IMG/VR virus record: IMGVR_UViG_3300024259_001623
Source of the DNA: a virus
Taxonomy: Duplodnaviria > Caudoviricetes
DNA length: 64,000 bases
Strand: one strand, 5' to 3'
Shown piece by piece: positions 1,168 through 11,878 of this stretch. The notes under the pieces are model-generated. The model did no database searches, was not told the origin of the DNA, and saw only the letters and a program-made list of their open reading frames with translations. Both the position numbers and the translations under genes were made by a program. Within the stretch, counting starts at the first letter, position 1; each line of letters opens with the position of its first letter.

Positions 1168-2718
1168 CTACACTCCCAACAATTCTTCAAAAGCATCTTT
1201 CTGAGTTTTTGTGATACCGGCTGCATCATCCTGGCTATCTATATCATCTATATCACTTTGAAAATCCAAATCCATATTATCAGAATCGTTGATTTTTTCC
1301 ATAATATTTTCTTGATTACCAGTATAGAAATTATCACTTATACTTTGTATCAAACTAATGTCTGGTCTTACTTCTAAAGTAGCTCTAGTAGAATTGTTAG
1401 CAAACATTTTCTTGCCGTATCTAGATTTGATGCAAAAGAAATTAATCCTTTTGCCTGGCTGCTGGGGGTCTTCCATCTGAACATACATAGCATCTGAATC
1501 AGCAGAATACTCGTGAGAACCTCGTATGTCTTCCGAATAGAACGCAGTCTTATTAGCCCCACTTCTTCTGATTCTCTTTAGAGCCTCTCTACCTATCTGA
1601 GCGCCAGAGACAACAGAGAAACCTTCTTCATGGACCGCTCCAGGCTTTCCCATCGTTCTCAAACCTTTCAGCATTTGACCGATTTCTAAATCATTTCTTC
1701 CTTTATTCCTGTCACTATCTGGAACTAAATTAGCTATATAATCAATAACTACCATGCTAGGCTTGAATACATCTACATGCTTTTCTATTTCTTTTCTAAT
1801 AACAGAAACTGGAACTTGATCATCAGCTTCCATAATAAAAAACTTACTTCCAGTTTCGGCCTCTTTATCTTTCAAATACTGGCTGAATCCTTTGACCTTT
1901 TCAAGTTCATCTTTATCTAAAAGAGTAGGATGCTCTAACTTATTAAAAGGTATCTGCAACTCTCTCGACATAAACTTCTGGAACATCTTTTCTCTAGGCA
2001 TTTCTAATGGAACATATAAAACATCTTTGCCTCCCTTGCTCCATACATTAGCTGCGACATTAAGCATAATTGTAGACTTATATCCTCCTACATCGCCGCA
2101 GAACAGCACCAGAGAACCAGGTGTAAAACCAACAACTAATGTTTCATCTATTTCTTTGATGAAACATTTAATATTAGTCTCATCTTCACCTTTTTCTAAA
2201 CGTTCAACAAATTTCTCATAATAAGTAGGAGAATAATCTGTTACAGATTCGTAAAATATTTCTTTTTTCTTTTCTGTATCAACAACAAGAGAACTCAATT
2301 TGTCCTCTAATTGTTTAGAAGCGAAAACGCTACCTTTTGCAGATACAGTCTTTTGATAATTTTCTATATACTCTACAGTCTGATCAGCGATATAAGATTC
2401 TACAATCTTGCTGCTTAATTCAGGAAAATCATCTCTACTAGTATTTAACGTATTAATATTATTATACAAATATTCTTGAGCCTGTATCTCCATTTTGGAA
2501 GATAAATACTTATGAAGAAAACTCACAAACGTCTTTCTAGTTAACAAAACGTCATTATTAAATGCATATATAACAGCATTTAATATCATCTGATGAGAAC
2601 TATCAAAATATTCTTCTTTTAAAGCACTTCCAGCCCAGTCCGAAACCAAATCTTTGTATTTTATAAGCAAACTTATAAAATCTCTTTCTATTTTAATTTT
2701 TTCTTTTTTTGATATCAT
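1168..2718 (-). CDS. dnaB: Replicative DnaB-like helicase
   Basis: N-terminal DnaB-like helical region, Walker A variant GDVGGYKST, LEM, Walker B VVIDY, AQIGRE, KSRYG. Confidence 0.85.
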   Translation of the reverse strand: MISKKEKIKIERDFISLLIKYKDLVSDWAGSALKEEYFDSSHQMILNAVIYAFNNDVLLTRKTFVSFLHKYLSSKMEIQAQEYLYNNINTLNTSRDDFPELSSKIVESYIADQTVEYIENYQKTVSAKGSVFASKQLEDKLSSLVVDTEKKKEIFYESVTDYSPTYYEKFVERLEKGEDETNIKCFIKEIDETLVVGFTPGSLVLFCGDVGGYKSTIMLNVAANVWSKGGKDVLYVPLEMPREKMFQKFMSRELQIPFNKLEHPTLLDKDELEKVKGFSQYLKDKEAETGSKFFIMEADDQVPVSVIRKEIEKHVDVFKPSMVVIDYIANLVPDSDRNKGRNDLEIGQMLKGLRTMGKPGAVHEEGFSVVSGAQIGREALKRIRRSGANKTAFYSEDIRGSHEYSADSDAMYVQMEDPQQPGKRINFFCIKSRYGKKMFANNSTRATLEVRPDISLIQSISDNFYTGNQENIMEKINDSDNMDLDFQSDIDDIDSQDDAAGITKTQKDAFEELLGV

Positions 2719-2721
2719 ATA

Positions 2722-3495
2722 TTATAACTCTATAAAACATGTCCTAGAAGAACCAATCACTTTTGTTATAGCTAAACCTAAATCATCTTCGCTTTGTTTT
2801 TGTTTAACATTAAATCTAAAAACAAAAATAGTTGGCAATCCATCTCTAATTCTTTCTATGAAAAATGGATTCATCATTTCACGCTTCCATCTTGTACTGG
2901 AATAAGGAATATCTTCTACAACGAGCCAATCTGCCGATCTTATATCAGATAACTCAGATTCCTCTTGTTTCCGTACCATGTCTTCCAATATAGCATATTC
3001 AATCCAATCATATGTTTGAGCCAAATCTAAACCATTATTAACTCTACTCTTTATAGCTTCTTTCATAATTAGAGAAGCACAAAAAGTTTTTCCCTTTTGC
3101 TCAAACGACTTCACTTTAGGATATATGACAACGTTATCACAGTTGCTTTTTCTCTTATTGATTATAGACACATTATCCAATTCTTTTTGATCCATAGAAT
3201 TGATTTTGTCTAAAGGAATATTCCCCCAGCAATATTTGACTATTTCTTTTTTAGCCGCGACCGCGACTTTAGGCTCTAGCACCTGCAAATTATGTTCTGA
3301 TAATCCATCAAAATCTTTTATGGAGAATTTATAATAAGGTTCAGGTATCACAGCCCTCAAGTATGCTTGAGTCTCTGCAACCAAAGAGCAGATATATCTC
3401 TCTTCATCGGAACATGAATTTATGTCTTTTACTCCGAAAAATTTATATGCAAATATATCTTCTAATTTTGTTTTAAGATCGTTTATGTTTTTCAT
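2722..3495 (-). CDS. DnaC/IstB-like helicase loader (degenerate AAA+)
   Basis: IPEPYYKFSIKDF, KGKTFCAS, 'IRSADWLVVEDI', 'FFIERIRDGLPTIF' resemble DnaC/IstB; adjacent to the DnaB-like gene. Confidence 0.65.
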   Translation of the reverse strand: MKNINDLKTKLEDIFAYKFFGVKDINSCSDEERYICSLVAETQAYLRAVIPEPYYKFSIKDFDGLSEHNLQVLEPKVAVAAKKEIVKYCWGNIPLDKINSMDQKELDNVSIINKRKSNCDNVVIYPKVKSFEQKGKTFCASLIMKEAIKSRVNNGLDLAQTYDWIEYAILEDMVRKQEESELSDIRSADWLVVEDIPYSSTRWKREMMNPFFIERIRDGLPTIFVFRFNVKQKQSEDDLGLAITKVIGSSRTCFIEL

Positions 3496-8039: not shown

Positions 8040-9119
8040 CTAATAAGATATTATCAAGAACTCCTTACCAATAGGATTCTTTCTATATTTATACTTGTAA
8101 CCTATGTCAGTTACCTTTACTGTTTTTTTGAAATCTTTTACGATTTTTTTTATTACATCTATACTCTCCCAGCTAGAATCATTATAACTTATTACCCAAC
8201 AAGGTAGATACGATAATCTATCGAGTAGGTCTACAAAATTATTTTTATAATCAGATTTGTTAACAAACTTTTTACTATCTATTTGTCTGTTTTTAGGACA
8301 TGCAAATTCTTCAAAAAAATTATACATATCGTGATAATCACTTTGACTCCCCCCATATGGAGGATCAATATAAACTAAATCCGCTTGAGGTTTTATCTTA
8401 TCTAAAAATTCTATAACATCCAAATTATACGCTTTAGATTTTTCAGATATAACAAAATCATTCTCATTAAAATCAGGCCAAATCATCTTATGCAGATTCA
8501 TAGATTCGCCCCTATTCCTCTTATGGTTTAATCTATGATCTAAGTCTGCAAGAACTTGACCTCTATTAAGACGACCTCCCAGAAAACATCTATCCATTAT
8601 GAATAACTGTATACTTATCATCGCCATACAATATCCGATATCATCTTTATCAGATTCAAATATACTCAAAGCATTTTGTTTAAAATTGTTTAATTCTTCT
8701 GCTTCATCTTGCGTAAATCTATTTATAAATTTTTGACTTATAAATCCATCAGCATTGTTTTTATTATGTATTAAATATTTTCTATCTTCATCGTTCAATA
8801 CATATGAATTGTTTTCAACAAAACATTTTGCGTAGAGAAAGGAACTGTAAAGAATATCATTTGAGATAACTTCTTTTCCAAGAATTTTCATAACCATAGA
8901 AAAGGATGCGCTACCGCTAAAAATATCTAAAACAGAATCAAATTTAATGCCTTCTTTCTTGATTTCTCTGATTATATAATTTAATATTTTTCTCTTATTA
9001 CCTATGTACGGATTTTTAATTCCGTTAATTCTATCACATGCATAATCCAATTGAGATTCAAAAGTTCTTTCACATGATCCGGTATCAAAATTTATTTCTT
9101 CTGGACAAGAAAATTTCAT
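8040..9119 (-). CDS. DNA N6-adenine methyltransferase (D12/Dam-FokI-like)
   Basis: PYIGNKRK, DIFSGSASFS (SAM binding), YIDPPY (motif IV), ISYN, EFLI. Confidence 0.9.
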   Translation of the reverse strand: MKFSCPEEINFDTGSCERTFESQLDYACDRINGIKNPYIGNKRKILNYIIREIKKEGIKFDSVLDIFSGSASFSMVMKILGKEVISNDILYSSFLYAKCFVENNSYVLNDEDRKYLIHNKNNADGFISQKFINRFTQDEAEELNNFKQNALSIFESDKDDIGYCMAMISIQLFIMDRCFLGGRLNRGQVLADLDHRLNHKRNRGESMNLHKMIWPDFNENDFVISEKSKAYNLDVIEFLDKIKPQADLVYIDPPYGGSQSDYHDMYNFFEEFACPKNRQIDSKKFVNKSDYKNNFVDLLDRLSYLPCWVISYNDSSWESIDVIKKIVKDFKKTVKVTDIGYKYKYRKNPIGKEFLIISY

Positions 9120-9121
9120 TT

Positions 9122-11878
9122 TTATTCTTCTTGTAATTCTTTGATATTAAACTGAGGTTCAGTCTTGTAAATTCTTTTACGAGTATCAGAATGCTTTGTA
9201 AGATATTCACAGTGGTCCTTGAAATCTATAACCAGAGCAGATTCCTTTTTGTAATCGCCGCTCGTAAATGGCCTGAGAACTCGCCCAACCCTCTGTAAGG
9301 CCCTCGTTTTGCTTTTACCACCGCCAGCTAGTATTAACGTGTCTAGGGGCCTACAATCGACTCCTTCATCGAATATAGAGGTAGCTATAGTTATCGCAGC
9401 ATCCCTATCTCTATTTCTCATCTTAGATAGATGGGCTTTTCGCTGCTTCCCAGAATGGACTCCATGCAAAAATGTACTTCCATCTATCATTTCACTTAAT
9501 AAATTACCATGATTAACTTGCTGGCATAATATCAAAATATTTTTACCATTTTCTTCAAAAGATTTAGCCATATTGGCAATATATTCATTTCTAACAGAAT
9601 TTTCTACTATTCCCTGTTTATAATAAGACTGGTAATTAAACAACTTACCAGGCATCCCTTTTCTAATAGGAACAAAATAAATATCGGGCTTGACGAGATA
9701 ACCTCTTTCGATCAAAAAAGAAGCTGATACATTTGCTATTTCTCTTCCGAAACAGGCATCGATTAATATATCATCTCCCTTGTCTCGCATAGGAGTCGCT
9801 GACATACCATACCTATATCTTGCATTACTAGAATAATCAGATATAACTTGACATGTATCTGATGCCCAATGCTGACAATTATGAACTAAAATATCATTAG
9901 CAAAAAAACAATGAGTGTCTTCAACTGTTATGTCATAAACATTATCTGATCCGCAATCTTCGATACTACTTATGCCAACGTAATTTGTATTCCATGTGTT
10001 TAGAGATGTGGTCTTTAACAACTCCGTAGATATTTCCTCTTGCTTCTTTCGATATATACAAGACATAATATTTTTTTTTGTATTTATGGATTGTTGATTT
10101 TCCATATTTGGCATTAAACCAATCAGCGCACAATTCGACTTCTGGTAAAGAAAATCCTTCTGTATGTAATCGTAGGCTATTATGAGTTGCTGAACCATCA
10201 TCTCCGATCCACCAAGCCAAGCCAACAGGTCCGATGAGATCAAGCCACTCTTTATTGACTCGTTTTTTACCATCTTTATATACAATCTTATAAATTCCAG
10301 AAAAACATGACGAACAAGGTGTATAACAAGAAATTGTGGTATCTCCATACCCGCCATTCGGGGATATATAATATTTAGGAGATAATCTGTCAAGAAAATC
10401 TGCCTTATACTTTGCCCAACCTTCTTGACATAACCCATGATTGTACACCAATCTTGGAGTTTTACTTCTTTGTGAAGGAAATGATAAACAAGAATCTCCC
10501 AAAAGTGTGCCAAAAATTGCTTGTGATTCTTTTTTAAGTAATGACAATCCCCACAAGTTATTCCTTTTATCATGTCCATAAATGTATTTTCTGTATTTTT
10601 TTGCCCCTTTATTTTTAATAAATGATTCCAATGATGTATATTTTGGCCGCACTTTTCCTCCGCAGCCGCATTTACATTTCGGAGCATTCTCGACAAACTC
10701 TTGGAAAACTTTTTTCCAATCCTCATTAGATCTTTTTCTGATTTGATGACCGAGGATATACTTTGGGTATCTACTCGGGCTTCGACCAAAGACTTCAATT
10801 TTTCCTCCGCAACCACATCTGCACATGACAAAATCTTGTCTGTTTTTTTTATGTCTCCTGCTTGAACCCATCCTTTCTGCGTTTTTATTAAATGATTTTT
10901 TGTACATTTTATATATCTACCTGAATCTAATACTATTTTAATAATAGAGTGTCTACCCTTATACATAAAATTAGTTATTTTCTTCCATACAACACTAGTT
11001 CCATCAAAACTAAGTATATCCTCTCCAATAAAATTAGAAAGTTCTGACATTTTTTTTCTACCACTTCTTGTGACAACTATAGAATCACCAGTTATGCATT
11101 CATCAGCAATGAATCCCTTTGAAGACATAATAATATCTAAAATGTCTTTACGCCTTTCAGATAAAATATTCTTCTCTGCTTTACTAATTTTCTTTGTTTT
11201 ATCTTCTTCGTCAAATCTGACGTATTTTTTACCACAAGCCAAAACAGCAGTTTGGATTGTCATAATAGTTATATCTTGAACATCAAATTTTCCACCACCG
11301 ACTATACCAACCTTAATAGGAATATTATTATAACGCAAAAACTTTTCAAACTCTTCTTTTGTTTGAGTTAAAAGATCTACAGATGGCACATAAAAAATAA
11401 ATGGAGATATTCCTAGTTCTGCAATAAGACCAGCAGCAATAGAAGTTTTTCCACCACCAGTGGCTACTTTGATAATGCCCCTTTGCATTTTAGAAGCTTG
11501 ATGTATAATAGTCTGCTGATAGTCTCTTGTTTCAAAATCATTAGACATATTCAATGATATATTTTTTGCTACAGGTTCTCTCTCATCGAATATGTCAAAT
11601 GGAACAGAATTTTTTACAAAATGATCTCTAGCTTTATTAAAAAGACCAGTTGGGAAATGCGTTCCATCCTTTTTTATTGCACATTTACAATATTTTTTGC
11701 AATAACAAAGGGTAGACTCTATGCCGTCCCATTTTGCATCGGAGCCTCTGACTTGAAAAATGGCCCCTTCTGGACGGTATCCTAAAAGTTTTCTCAAACC
11801 CTGATAAACATCAGAATCTAATCTTCCCTGAATATAAGTCTTTGTATTGGTTACTAATAATTTTATTTTATTTTTCAT
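9122..11878 (-). CDS. SF2 DExH helicase (UvsW/XPB-like), intein-containing; about 511 aa after splicing
   Basis: RDYQ, ATGGGKT, ADE[intein]CQH, GMSATPMR, IFDEGVD, QRVGRVLR. Confidence 0.92.
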   Translation of the reverse strand: MKNKIKLLVTNTKTYIQGRLDSDVYQGLRKLLGYRPEGAIFQVRGSDAKWDGIESTLCYCKKYCKCAIKKDGTHFPTGLFNKARDHFVKNSVPFDIFDEREPVAKNISLNMSNDFETRDYQQTIIHQASKMQRGIIKVATGGGKTSIAAGLIAELGISPFIFYVPSVDLLTQTKEEFEKFLRYNNIPIKVGIVGGGKFDVQDITIMTIQTAVLACGKKYVRFDEEDKTKKISKAEKNILSERRKDILDIIMSSKGFIADECITGDSIVVTRSGRKKMSELSNFIGEDILSFDGTSVVWKKITNFMYKGRHSIIKIVLDSGRYIKCTKNHLIKTQKGWVQAGDIKKTDKILSCADVVAEEKLKSLVEARVDTQSISSVIKSEKDLMRIGKKFSKSLSRMLRNVNAAAEEKCGQNIHHWNHLLKIKGQKNTENTFMDMIKGITCGDCHYLKKNHKQFLAHFWEILVYHFLHKEVKLQDWCTIMGYVKKVGQSIRQIFLTDYLLNIIYPRMAGMEIPQFLVIHLVRHVFLEFIRLYIKMVKNESIKSGLISSDLLAWLGGSEMMVQQLIIAYDYIQKDFLYQKSNCALIGLMPNMENQQSINTKKNIMSCIYRKKQEEISTELLKTTSLNTWNTNYVGISSIEDCGSDNVYDITVEDTHCFFANDILVHNCQHWASDTCQVISDYSSNARYRYGMSATPMRDKGDDILIDACFGREIANVSASFLIERGYLVKPDIYFVPIRKGMPGKLFNYQSYYKQGIVENSVRNEYIANMAKSFEENGKNILILCQQVNHGNLLSEMIDGSTFLHGVHSGKQRKAHLSKMRNRDRDAAITIATSIFDEGVDCRPLDTLILAGGGKSKTRALQRVGRVLRPFTSGDYKKESALVIDFKDHCEYLTKHSDTRKRIYKTEPQFNIKELQEE
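9878..11098 (-). mobile_element. Intein (407 aa) in helicase Walker B, with an out-of-frame homing endonuclease
   Basis: Begins CITGDSIVVT (TGC 11096-11098), block B KCTKNHLI, ends VYDITVEDTHCFFANDILVHN with +1 Cys; removal restores DECQH. Confidence 0.93.
9966..10907 (-). CDS. LAGLIDADG_2-type homing endonuclease overprinted in the -1 frame inside the helicase intein
   Basis: Two CxCGCGG motifs, AIFGTLLGDSCL, GLAWWIGDDGS, LRLHTEGFS; offset 971 nt (mod 3 = 2) from the helicase start. Real start may be ATG 10826 (MCRCGCGG). Confidence 0.88.
   Translation of the reverse strand: MYKKSFNKNAERMGSSRRHKKNRQDFVMCRCGCGGKIEVFGRSPSRYPKYILGHQIRKRSNEDWKKVFQEFVENAPKCKCGCGGKVRPKYTSLESFIKNKGAKKYRKYIYGHDKRNNLWGLSLLKKESQAIFGTLLGDSCLSFPSQRSKTPRLVYNHGLCQEGWAKYKADFLDRLSPKYYISPNGGYGDTTISCYTPCSSCFSGIYKIVYKDGKKRVNKEWLDLIGPVGLAWWIGDDGSATHNSLRLHTEGFSLPEVELCADWFNAKYGKSTIHKYKKKYYVLYISKEARGNIYGVVKDHISKHMEYKLRWHK

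Follow-up and report, generated by a model that had tools for sequence, protein, structure and literature searches.

How can an intein stay open across the slot of its homing endonuclease when the nuclease is read from another frame over the same bases? This question is raised by a helicase gene of a marine virus (IMG/VR virus record IMGVR_UViG_3300024259_001623; Duplodnaviria; Caudoviricetes), of which a stretch of 64,000 nt, hereafter the window, was analyzed. Considering all the evidence below, we find it likely that the locus is a mobile non-canonical intein with an overprinted, separately made homing endonuclease. Its general design is already published, in a cyanobacterial dnaX intein (Gorbalenya 1998; Phillips 2026) and in actinobacteriophages (Gosselin 2025).

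The helicase intein and its nested reading frame

The features of the locus are the following.

9122–11878, minus strand: helicase precursor ORF, 918 aa, SF2, interrupted by the intein (ORF list, Pfam and PHROG)
11099–11878, minus strand: N-extein, aa 1–260, ending in ADE of motif II (translation and boundary search)
9878–11098, minus strand: putative intein, 407 aa (ORF aa 261–667), first residues CITGDS, last residues ILVHN, with the +1 Cys in the CQH that follows (boundary search)
10826–11098, minus strand: N-terminal splicing (Hint) region, intein aa 1–91, blocks A and B (AlphaFold2, identity)
9986–10825, minus strand: in-frame linker, intein aa 92–371, stop-free and with no sign of protein constraint (AlphaFold2, Pfam, substitutions)
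9878–9985, minus strand: C-terminal splicing region, intein aa 372–407, blocks F and G with the HN end (AlphaFold2, identity)
9122–9877, minus strand: C-extein, aa 668–918 and stop, beginning with CQHWASD (translation, Pfam)
9966–10907, minus strand: nested putative homing endonuclease gene, 313 aa and TAG, at offset 2 (-1) relative to the host frame (Pfam, PDB, AlphaFold2)
10905–10907, minus strand: first ATG of the nuclease frame, inside block B, where the K-C codons AAA TGT are read A ATG T (sequence)
10843–10850, minus strand: A8 run, A AAA AAA in the host frame, probably incidental (sequence)
10803–10823, minus strand: first CxCGCGG motif, nuclease aa 29–35 (translation; CxCGCG conserved in the alignment)
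10656–10676, minus strand: second CxCGCGG motif, nuclease aa 78–84 (C78, C80, G81, C82 and G83 invariant in 10 sequences)
10491–10517, minus strand: LAGLIDADG motif 1, IFGTLLGDS, nuclease aa 131–139 (G133–D138 invariant in 10 sequences)
10191–10220, minus strand: LAGLIDADG motif 2, LAWWIGDDGS, nuclease aa 230–239 (L230, A231, W233, D236, D237 and G238 invariant in 10 sequences)

The host ORF is a DNA helicase according to PHROG (1.3e-69) and carries the Pfam domains ResIII (9.7e-15) and Helicase_C (8.7e-09), one on either side of the intein. Phage helicases align to both exteins and leave out the insert, which lies in frame with the host within helicase motif II (DE|CQH). Boundary search returned the same limits as the earlier note, and the Pfam model Intein_splicing covers aa 273–667 (1.3e-16; 61.2 bits against a cut-off of 35.8). 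All class-1 residues were found, namely Cys1 in CITGDS, the block B TxxH in CTKNH (intein aa 65–69), and the HN end followed by the +1 Cys; C1, T66, H69, D389, H406 and N407 are invariant across four relatives. The N-terminal splicing region is modeled by AlphaFold2 with pLDDT 60–85 and beta strands to residue 93, and is 56–66% identical among relatives, while the C-terminal region is 63–67% identical to relatives, with pLDDT of about 80 for aa 372–394. These features point to a class-1 intein with a Hint domain, and the intact catalytic residues, together with the conservation of an apparently essential helicase, suggest that it undergoes protein splicing. As the host frame is unbroken (0 stops), the intein in the window would be contiguous and cis-splicing. 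A helicase related to this one, L088 (57% identity across the part of the C-extein that could be matched), carries no insert at motif II and reads DEVQH there.

The nested ORF matches LAGLIDADG_2 in Pfam (4.7e-27; 95.4 bits against a cut-off of 25), and its sequence matches in the PDB are I-WcaI and I-SceI. Foldseek paired its AlphaFold2 model (mean pLDDT 81, core 90–97) with I-WcaI (6x1j, TM 0.77, E = 4.8e-14) and with I-SceI (TM 0.74), and the predicted fold is the pseudo-dimeric alpha-beta-beta-alpha-beta-beta-alpha arrangement. The acidic residues of the LAGLIDADG motifs (D138; D236/D237) are invariant in 10 sequences. We also recovered the two CxCGCGG motifs that had been noticed earlier along with this -1-frame LAGLIDADG_2 nuclease; the N-terminal part that holds them is modeled with moderate confidence (pLDDT 53–88), and the repeats gave no significant Pfam match (best DUF6527, E = 0.015). 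Sequence and model together suggest a monomeric homing endonuclease of the I-SceI type within LAGLIDADG_2.

Selection in the two frames

Over the 313 codons overlapped by the nuclease, a span that takes in the whole linker, the host frame contains 0 stops and the third frame 32. The +1 frames of the exteins hold 0.071 stops per codon, from which about 22 are predicted over the overlap, and synonymous-codon shuffles that kept the nuclease protein and its codon usage gave a mean of 7.5 stops, with zero reached in 0 of 5000. Hence, the claim in the earlier note that so long a stop-free off-frame stretch is unlikely without selection is borne out (0 stops against 7.5–22 expected). We extended the comparison to 88 loci sampled by similarity to the window nuclease, 26 of which, amounting to 21 distinct sequences, carry the overprint in either -1 or +1. 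The 12 distinct -1 loci, that is the window and 11 other viral loci including the cultured phage FoX3, which has the same -1 overprint, contained 0 host-frame stops against 67.5 expected, and their third frame 316 against 321.7 expected. Likewise, the 9 distinct +1 loci contained 0 host-frame stops against 80.8 expected, while observed stops were close to expectation in the 33 free-standing, 6 in-frame, 2 fractured and 1 in-frame split loci. Avoidance of stops is confined to the host frame, and relatives of the fractured, in-frame and free-standing kinds lack it. The overprinted layout itself is shared by many divergent phages.

We also compared the two frames by codon position, and found that it is the nuclease frame that the substitutions obey. 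When the window is set against four relatives, position 3 of the nuclease codons varies most, then position 1, then position 2; differences per site at positions 1, 2 and 3 were 0.32, 0.26 and 0.45 for the window versus L004, and 0.21, 0.14 and 0.38 for L005 versus L006. As nuclease position 3 is the most variable, it is codon position 2 that varies most in the intein frame. The nuclease aligns to the four relatives nearly without gaps (one 1-residue indel and differing C-terminal tails) and is 54–56% identical to relatives, versus 36–41% for the linker. Purifying selection is thus shown, at the sequence level, in the nuclease frame. On the contrary, the only detectable constraint on the linker peptide appears to be freedom from stops: its pLDDT is below 50 throughout, in a model built from an alignment of only 4 sequences, and it has no significant Pfam match. 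The earlier view of the in-frame linker as tolerated filler fits with its low identity, its poor pLDDT and the variability of intein-frame position 2.

Expression of the nuclease and alternative readings

The nuclease had been thought to start right after block B, but its first ATG sits within that block, and the nuclease ORF shares its first 27 codons with the final strands of the N-terminal splicing domain. An ATG is found at the equivalent place in L004–L007, L011, L015 and the phages Ymer and AN_ECEAS. In the window it is preceded by a weak Shine-Dalgarno match only (AGGTAG, 9 nt upstream); across the family, 8 of 19 overprint loci have a Shine-Dalgarno core ahead of the first ATG of the nuclease, versus a background of 12% (P = 0.001). 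Internal sigma-70-type promoter matches for the nuclease were not above chance (12 against 14.7 expected), and the window stretch was in none of the RNA runs searched. The evidence supports the nuclease as a separate out-of-frame product, which would be translated independently.

In the mechanism that we propose, the helicase would be translated as a 918-aa precursor, in which the two Hint halves (intein aa 1–91 and 372–407) would associate, excise the 407-aa insert and restore motif II (DE-CQH). The ~280 residues between the halves would be a by-product of the nuclease gene read one base off register, kept without stops because a stop would destroy the helicase. In turn, the -1 frame would provide a free-standing monomeric LAGLIDADG_2 nuclease of the I-SceI type with two N-terminal CxCGCGG modules, most likely initiated independently, and at a low level, at the block B ATG. 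This nuclease would cut intein-less helicase alleles at DE|CQH, and repair would copy the intein in. Independent initiation, splicing, cleavage and homing are four steps that we infer. The window is about as close to its relatives in the exteins as in the intein, which gives no sign of recent horizontal transfer, and homing at present is conjectural.

The nuclease might alternatively be reached by -1 ribosomal frameshifting or transcriptional slippage at the A8 run, giving a fusion of N-extein, N-intein and nuclease that ends at the nuclease stop. Indeed, read in the 0 frame the run is a heptamer of the slippery type X XXY YYZ, a -1 slip there would lead into the nuclease frame immediately ahead of the first CxCGCGG motif, and a natural 547-aa protein of that make-up is present in L008–L010; the poor Shine-Dalgarno match at the window ATG also speaks for it. 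However, no comparable A run occurs at the equivalent place in L004, L005 or L006, which all have the same overprint, the sequence downstream folds no better than shuffles (z = -0.85), and the family conserves an ATG with Shine-Dalgarno-like purines. An AGGAG, moreover, ends only 3–4 nt before the heptamer, which is too near for -1 stimulation, going by dnaX and prfB. As the run is not conserved and the fold resembles that of shuffles, we retain slippage only as a rival of quite low probability. It is also unlikely that the element is a relic, in which the intein splices for the helicase while the nuclease no longer homes, being inactive or kept for another role. Extein and intein parts do diverge in step between the window and L004–L006, consistent with vertical descent without recent invasion. 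Against this stand the pattern of purifying selection in the nuclease frame (position 3 > 1 > 2), the nearly gap-free alignment at 54–56% identity with invariant catalytic Asp residues, and the consideration that a functionless ORF would have gained stops, as the third frame has (32). In addition, the empty motif II site of L088 indicates that the presence of the intein is sporadic.

Two further readings were considered. Two compensating indels, from assembly or sequencing, could have shifted an ordinary in-frame nuclease domain, and the frame does change at both ends of the nuclease module, at the 5' end near the homopolymer A8. A host frame displaced in this way would nonetheless hold about 22 stops, and 0 were found; contigs from four other seawater runs match across both junctions with 0 mismatches and 0 gaps, so that the frame relation is not an assembly error, and eleven other distinct loci, from unrelated samples and the cultured FoX3, have it too. 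We consider such an artefact effectively refuted and its probability negligible. Finally, the linker might be a functional polypeptide, for example a splicing regulator, making the region dual-coding at the protein level. This would agree with a frame kept open across long divergence and with helices that AlphaFold2 places there, at very low confidence, but position 2 of the linker codons is the most variable site class, linker identity is the lowest of all gene parts, pLDDT is about 26–43 with no significant Pfam match, and the fractured-gene relatives dispense with the linker wholly. We therefore regard a functional linker as very improbable, and keep to an overprinted, separately made nuclease within a splicing intein.

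Relatives and published precedents

Among the relatives, the phages Ymer and AN_ECEAS have a fractured gene of three overlapping ORFs, with a homologous nuclease in the same -1 frame and with 13 and 10 stops, respectively, in the host frame. In L008–L010, the nuclease is in frame with the N-half, and one TAA, with an ATG after it, severs it from the C-half, so that the 547-aa protein comprises N-extein, N-intein and nuclease. We rejected a reading of the window locus itself as a fractured gene with a naturally split intein, as its host frame is continuous; Ymer, AN_ECEAS and L008–L010 have a broken one. In a 66-row tree, overprinted, fractured and in-frame split forms made up one supported clade (98/94), whose inner order is a polytomy, and an AU test on an 18-row tree did not reject a single overprinted clade excluding the fractured pair (p = 0.139). 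We suggest, tentatively and with more doubt than conviction, that the fractured form could derive directly from the overprinted contiguous form (or give rise to it), and that out-of-frame nucleases could offer a general route between cis-splicing and split inteins. If so, the intermediates that Dassa et al. 2009 postulated would be represented in this family as a living series.

Those authors described genes that are fractured, with a split intein, and that carry a free-standing endonuclease gene (PMC2677866). As in their case, a phage replication gene in the window holds an intein whose nuclease slot is occupied by a free-standing nuclease gene on the same strand, which overlaps the downstream intein part; Ymer and AN_ECEAS have exactly their three-ORF layout, with a homologue of the window nuclease. 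The published nucleases are GIY-YIG and Vsr-like and follow a non-coding gap of 27–51 nt, whereas the window nuclease ORF overlaps both intein halves and leaves the host frame unbroken.

The earlier note held the layout to be rare rather than unprecedented, and pointed to out-of-frame intein nucleases in actinobacteriophages. Both points were right (bioRxiv 10.1101/2025.01.02.630785), although the dnaX intein is the closer precedent (10.64898/2026.09.14.751524). According to later papers, an out-of-frame LAGLIDADG homing endonuclease was described for the cyanobacterial DnaX intein in Gorbalenya 1998 (NAR 26:1741), and the intein has been treated again by Phillips, DeSimone & Gogarten (bioRxiv 10.64898/2026.09.14.751524). 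In both the DnaX intein and the window, the host frame is open and its in-frame stretch is predicted to be disordered (10.64898/2026.09.14.751524), selection is purifying in the nuclease frame and relaxed or inverted in the host frame (same paper), and structural comparison of the nuclease gives I-WcaI 6X1J as the top PDB entry. They differ in that the window host is motif II of a phage SF2 helicase in a marine virus, not bacterial dnaX, and in that the window nuclease carries two CxCGCGG modules and belongs to a family with fractured and in-frame split forms. A single peptide-pattern scan of bacterial genomes gave one relative, in a Melainabacteria MAG, and no cyanobacterial dnaX locus, so that, within the limits of the pattern, nothing pointed to the dnaX nuclease as a close homologue. 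Judging from sequence and models, the window element appears to be a dnaX-type non-canonical intein with a same-strand out-of-frame nuclease gene.

The non-canonical inteins of actinobacteriophages (Gosselin, Arsenault & Gogarten, bioRxiv 10.1101/2025.01.02.630785), for which those authors proposed that a free-standing nuclease gene invaded an intein, share with the window a phage host, a nuclease encoded apart from the intein frame and an in-frame stretch without recognizable structure. However, the gene in 'frame 3' that makes up their out-of-frame case is endonuclease VII-like, the antisense strand carries their LAGLIDADG and Vsr-like nucleases, and the inteins reside in terminase, DNA polymerase, minor capsid protein and thymidylate synthase, not in helicases. 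Canonical inteins such as PI-PfuI and PI-SceI also place the nuclease between blocks B and F and have the splicing chemistry predicted here (Cys1, TxxH, HN, +1 Cys); in the window, on the contrary, the nuclease lies outside the intein polypeptide and belongs to the intron-type LAGLIDADG_2/I-SceI group, not to LAGLIDADG_3, the type usual in inteins.

The locus provides a clear and statistically well-controlled case of overprinting, in which one frame is selected as protein and the other would be selected only against stops, because protein splicing discards the linker. A nuclease clade in which contiguous, fractured and in-frame split forms occur together, all in inteins at helicase motif II, is also material on the origin of split inteins, and the family may be a source, for engineering, of new orthogonal pairs of split inteins and of nucleases resembling I-SceI. 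Gene callers and intein surveys would take such elements for decaying or mini inteins, missing the nuclease gene.

A nuclease gene out of frame in the helicase intein

The helicase of the window, its intein and the nuclease within it occupy the following positions, the host frame being that of helicase and intein.

9122-11878, minus strand: helicase precursor ORF, 918 aa (ORF list)
9878-11098, minus strand: intein, aa 261-667 of the 918-aa ORF (translation and boundary search)
9966-10907, minus strand: nuclease ORF, 313 aa, at offset 2 (= -1) of the host frame, nested in the intein (LAGLIDADG_2, 4.7e-27)

The 918-aa ORF matches ResIII/DEAD (aa 115-224) and Helicase_C (aa 774-869) in Pfam, with an Intein_splicing match spanning aa 273 to 667 (1.3e-16), and the flanks of the intein are named DNA helicase in PHROGs. 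The intein starts with CITGDS immediately behind helicase motif II (...ADE) and ends in ...ILVHN, followed by CQH; its splicing residues C1, T66, H69, D389, H406 and N407 are all invariant between the window and four relatives. A DNA methyltransferase-like gene with a DPPYGG motif (8040-9119, minus strand) starts 3 nt past the helicase stop, and a homologous gene lies behind the helicase in the relative L004, showing that synteny is conserved.

The nuclease is indeed encoded in the -1 frame within the intein, as the earlier note had claimed. Sequence comparison gave I-WcaI (6x1j) and I-SceI as its nearest solved relatives, which an AlphaFold2 model from a 10-sequence alignment (mean pLDDT 81; LAGLIDADG core 90-97) matched with TM 0.77 and 0.74, respectively. 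Both LAGLIDADG motifs keep their acidic residues in every aligned nuclease sequence, and the N-terminal third carries two CxCGCGG motifs, for which no Pfam family was found.

Over the 313 overlapped codons, the host frame contains 0 stops and the third frame 32. In the +1 frames of the two exteins, the stop density is 0.071 per codon, which predicts about 22 host-frame stops across the overlap. In a more conservative approach, synonymous codons were permuted with the nuclease protein unchanged and with its codon usage, which is itself biased already, retained; the 5000 shuffles had a mean of 7.5 host-frame stops and none (0/5000) reached zero, while the reverse test gave 15.5 stops expected in the nuclease frame. 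Therefore, both frames of the overlap are kept stop-free by selection, in agreement with the proposal that the intein frame is open beyond chance.

The earlier note had also raised the possibility of indels. Contigs from four other seawater metagenome runs aligned with 0 mismatches and 0 gaps across the start and the end of the nuclease ORF and across an A8 run (10843-10850). This identity rules out an assembly artefact; more decisive is the recurrence of the arrangement in independent, much diverged sequences. Short contigs in seawater runs X6 and X8 match the window only at the block B region (10881-10912) and have flanks identical to the L005-type relative, so that those samples also contain another phage that carries this overprinted intein.

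We also looked at which frame is selected as protein. In four relatives from IMG/VR (L004-L007), the helicase is syntenic, the intein occupies the same site and the same nuclease lies in the -1 frame. Their nucleases are 54-56% identical to that of the window in an almost gap-free alignment (one 1-residue indel and differing C-terminal tails); for the in-frame linker, identity reaches only 36-41%. At nuclease codon positions 1/2/3, the window and L004 had 0.32/0.26/0.45 differences per site, and L005 and L006 had 0.21/0.14/0.38; this order (3 > 1 > 2) is the classic mark of purifying selection in the nuclease frame. Variation is thus highest at the sites that form codon position 2 in the intein frame, so that the linker is not preserved at the peptide level. 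In the AlphaFold2 model of the intein frame (4-sequence alignment), residues 1-91 had pLDDT 60-85 and residues 372-394 about 80, with values below 50 in between (92-371). The interpretation given in the earlier note, with the linker as tolerated filler, is supported.

Both alternative frames in related nucleases

A nuclease HMM was run over 88 loci (the window, 3 GenBank phages, 80 IMG/VR contigs, 3 assembly contigs and 1 MAG), and classes were assigned by HMMs of the intein N-half and C-half.

Locus classes among the 88 loci
Host frame at nuclease +1 (the window's -1 arrangement): 14
Host frame at nuclease +2 (+1 overprint): 12
Canonical in-frame intein: 10
In frame but split: 3
Fractured: 2
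Partial: 3
No intein detected: 44

Pfam placed Intein_splicing between ResIII/DEAD and Helicase_C in representatives from each of the two overprint classes. Stops were counted on distinct loci, with duplicates removed. In the 12 distinct -1 overprint loci, the host frame had 0 stops against 67.5 expected and the third frame 316 against 321.7; the 9 distinct +1 overprint loci had 0 against 80.8 and 148 against 141.7, respectively. Observed and expected stops were about equal in both frames of all control classes, so that stop avoidance is controlled for across the whole family. The +1 set (L017, L019-L023, L027, L028, L030-L032 and L080) carries a related LAGLIDADG gene in DEAD-box helicases and unidentified proteins. 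In the nuclease tree these loci form separate groups, and the window falls in a supported clade (98/94) of 11 -1 overprint, 2 fractured and 1 in-frame split rows.

Contiguous, fractured and split forms

Xanthomonas phage FoX3 has a contiguous helicase (gp40, 'putative DNA helicase', L001:1782-4316) with a -1 overprinted nuclease, a 252-aa LAGLIDADG ORF (2381-3139) unannotated in the record. In Pectobacterium phage Ymer (L002:1731-4937) and Escherichia phage AN_ECEAS (L003:1782-4916), the helicase consists of two same-frame ORFs with intein halves, both overlapped by a homologous LAGLIDADG ORF in the -1 frame; host-frame stops are 13 against 13.4 expected from shuffles in Ymer and 10 against 12.2 in AN_ECEAS. 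The nuclease ORF of AN_ECEAS is also unannotated, and the N piece of Ymer is labelled hypothetical protein.

In L008-L010 (L008:4001-6538), N-extein, N-intein and LAGLIDADG nuclease form one 547-aa protein, whose frame ends in a single TAA with an ATG directly next; GAGG lies upstream of a second ATG, and the frame continues with C-intein plus C-extein as a gene of 293 aa. This layout, present on 14 contigs, looks like a natural split intein with the nuclease on the N-part. Residues 106-319 of the L008-type intein align to the nuclease-frame ORF of the window and its ends to the host frame; therefore, the two layouts differ by one frame switch per nuclease module edge. As to the order in which the overprinted, fractured and in-frame split forms arose, an AU test on an 18-row tree did not reject a single overprinted clade from which the fractured pair is left out (p = 0.139). 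In L008 and L009, but not in L010, the DNA polymerase and helicase module is preceded upstream by an OrfB_IS605/Cas12f-like TnpB gene (417-1559 in both).

Gorbalenya is said to have proposed out-of-frame or antisense nuclease genes in inteins in 1998. The out-of-frame design is already known and recently characterised, and the window adds another member. The actinobacteriophage cases named in the earlier note are on record; there, the out-of-frame genes are endonuclease VII-like and the antisense ones LAGLIDADG and Vsr-like (Gosselin et al. 2025, bioRxiv 10.1101/2025.01.02.630785). In a cyanobacterial dnaX intein, the LAGLIDADG gene occupies the +2 ORF, the in-frame stretch is disordered and omega values depend on the frame (Phillips et al. 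2026, bioRxiv 10.64898/2026.09.14.751524), and its nuclease shares the best PDB match, 6X1J, with that of the window. The arrangement in Ymer and AN_ECEAS is that of the fractured genes described by Dassa et al. 2009 (PMC2677866). No literature was found on this helicase family or on such a nuclease arrangement in FoX3 or Ymer. Besides the stop control, our analysis adds the use of both alternative frames by related nucleases and the presence of contiguous overprinted, fractured and in-frame split versions inside one nuclease clade.

Nuclease expression and intein mobility

The first nuclease-frame ATG sits within block B of the intein, where AAA TGT becomes A ATG T in this frame, and an ATG is found at the equivalent place in L004-L007, L011, L015, Ymer and AN_ECEAS, the last two with GGAGAGG 7 nt upstream. 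A Shine-Dalgarno core is present at -17 to -4 in 8 of the 19 distinct overprint loci, against a background of 12% at other ATG triplets within the same ORFs (P = 0.001). The AGGTAG site of the window is weak, which would fit low nuclease expression but is not evidence for it, and no promoter signals for the nuclease were above chance in the window. Alternatively, the nuclease might be reached by a -1 frameshift at the A8 run (10843-10850), which is in the right register and would give a product like the L008 protein; we consider this very improbable, as the run is missing in L004-L006 and the fold downstream is unremarkable (z = -0.85).

Concerning mobility, extein and intein divergence are alike among the window and L004-L006, with no sign of recent transfer in this comparison. 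The related helicase of L088 (L088:3-4157; 57% identical over the matched C-extein part) lacks the motif II insert, reading DEVQH; therefore, the presence of the motif II intein is sporadic. This helicase has two canonical in-frame LAGLIDADG inteins elsewhere, one following GGGK in Walker A and the other preceding SATPWRD. Moreover, the L006 helicase ORF (L006:1946-6064) has 1372 aa against about 920 usual, indicating that a further large insertion, probably another intein, lies downstream of the overprinted one.
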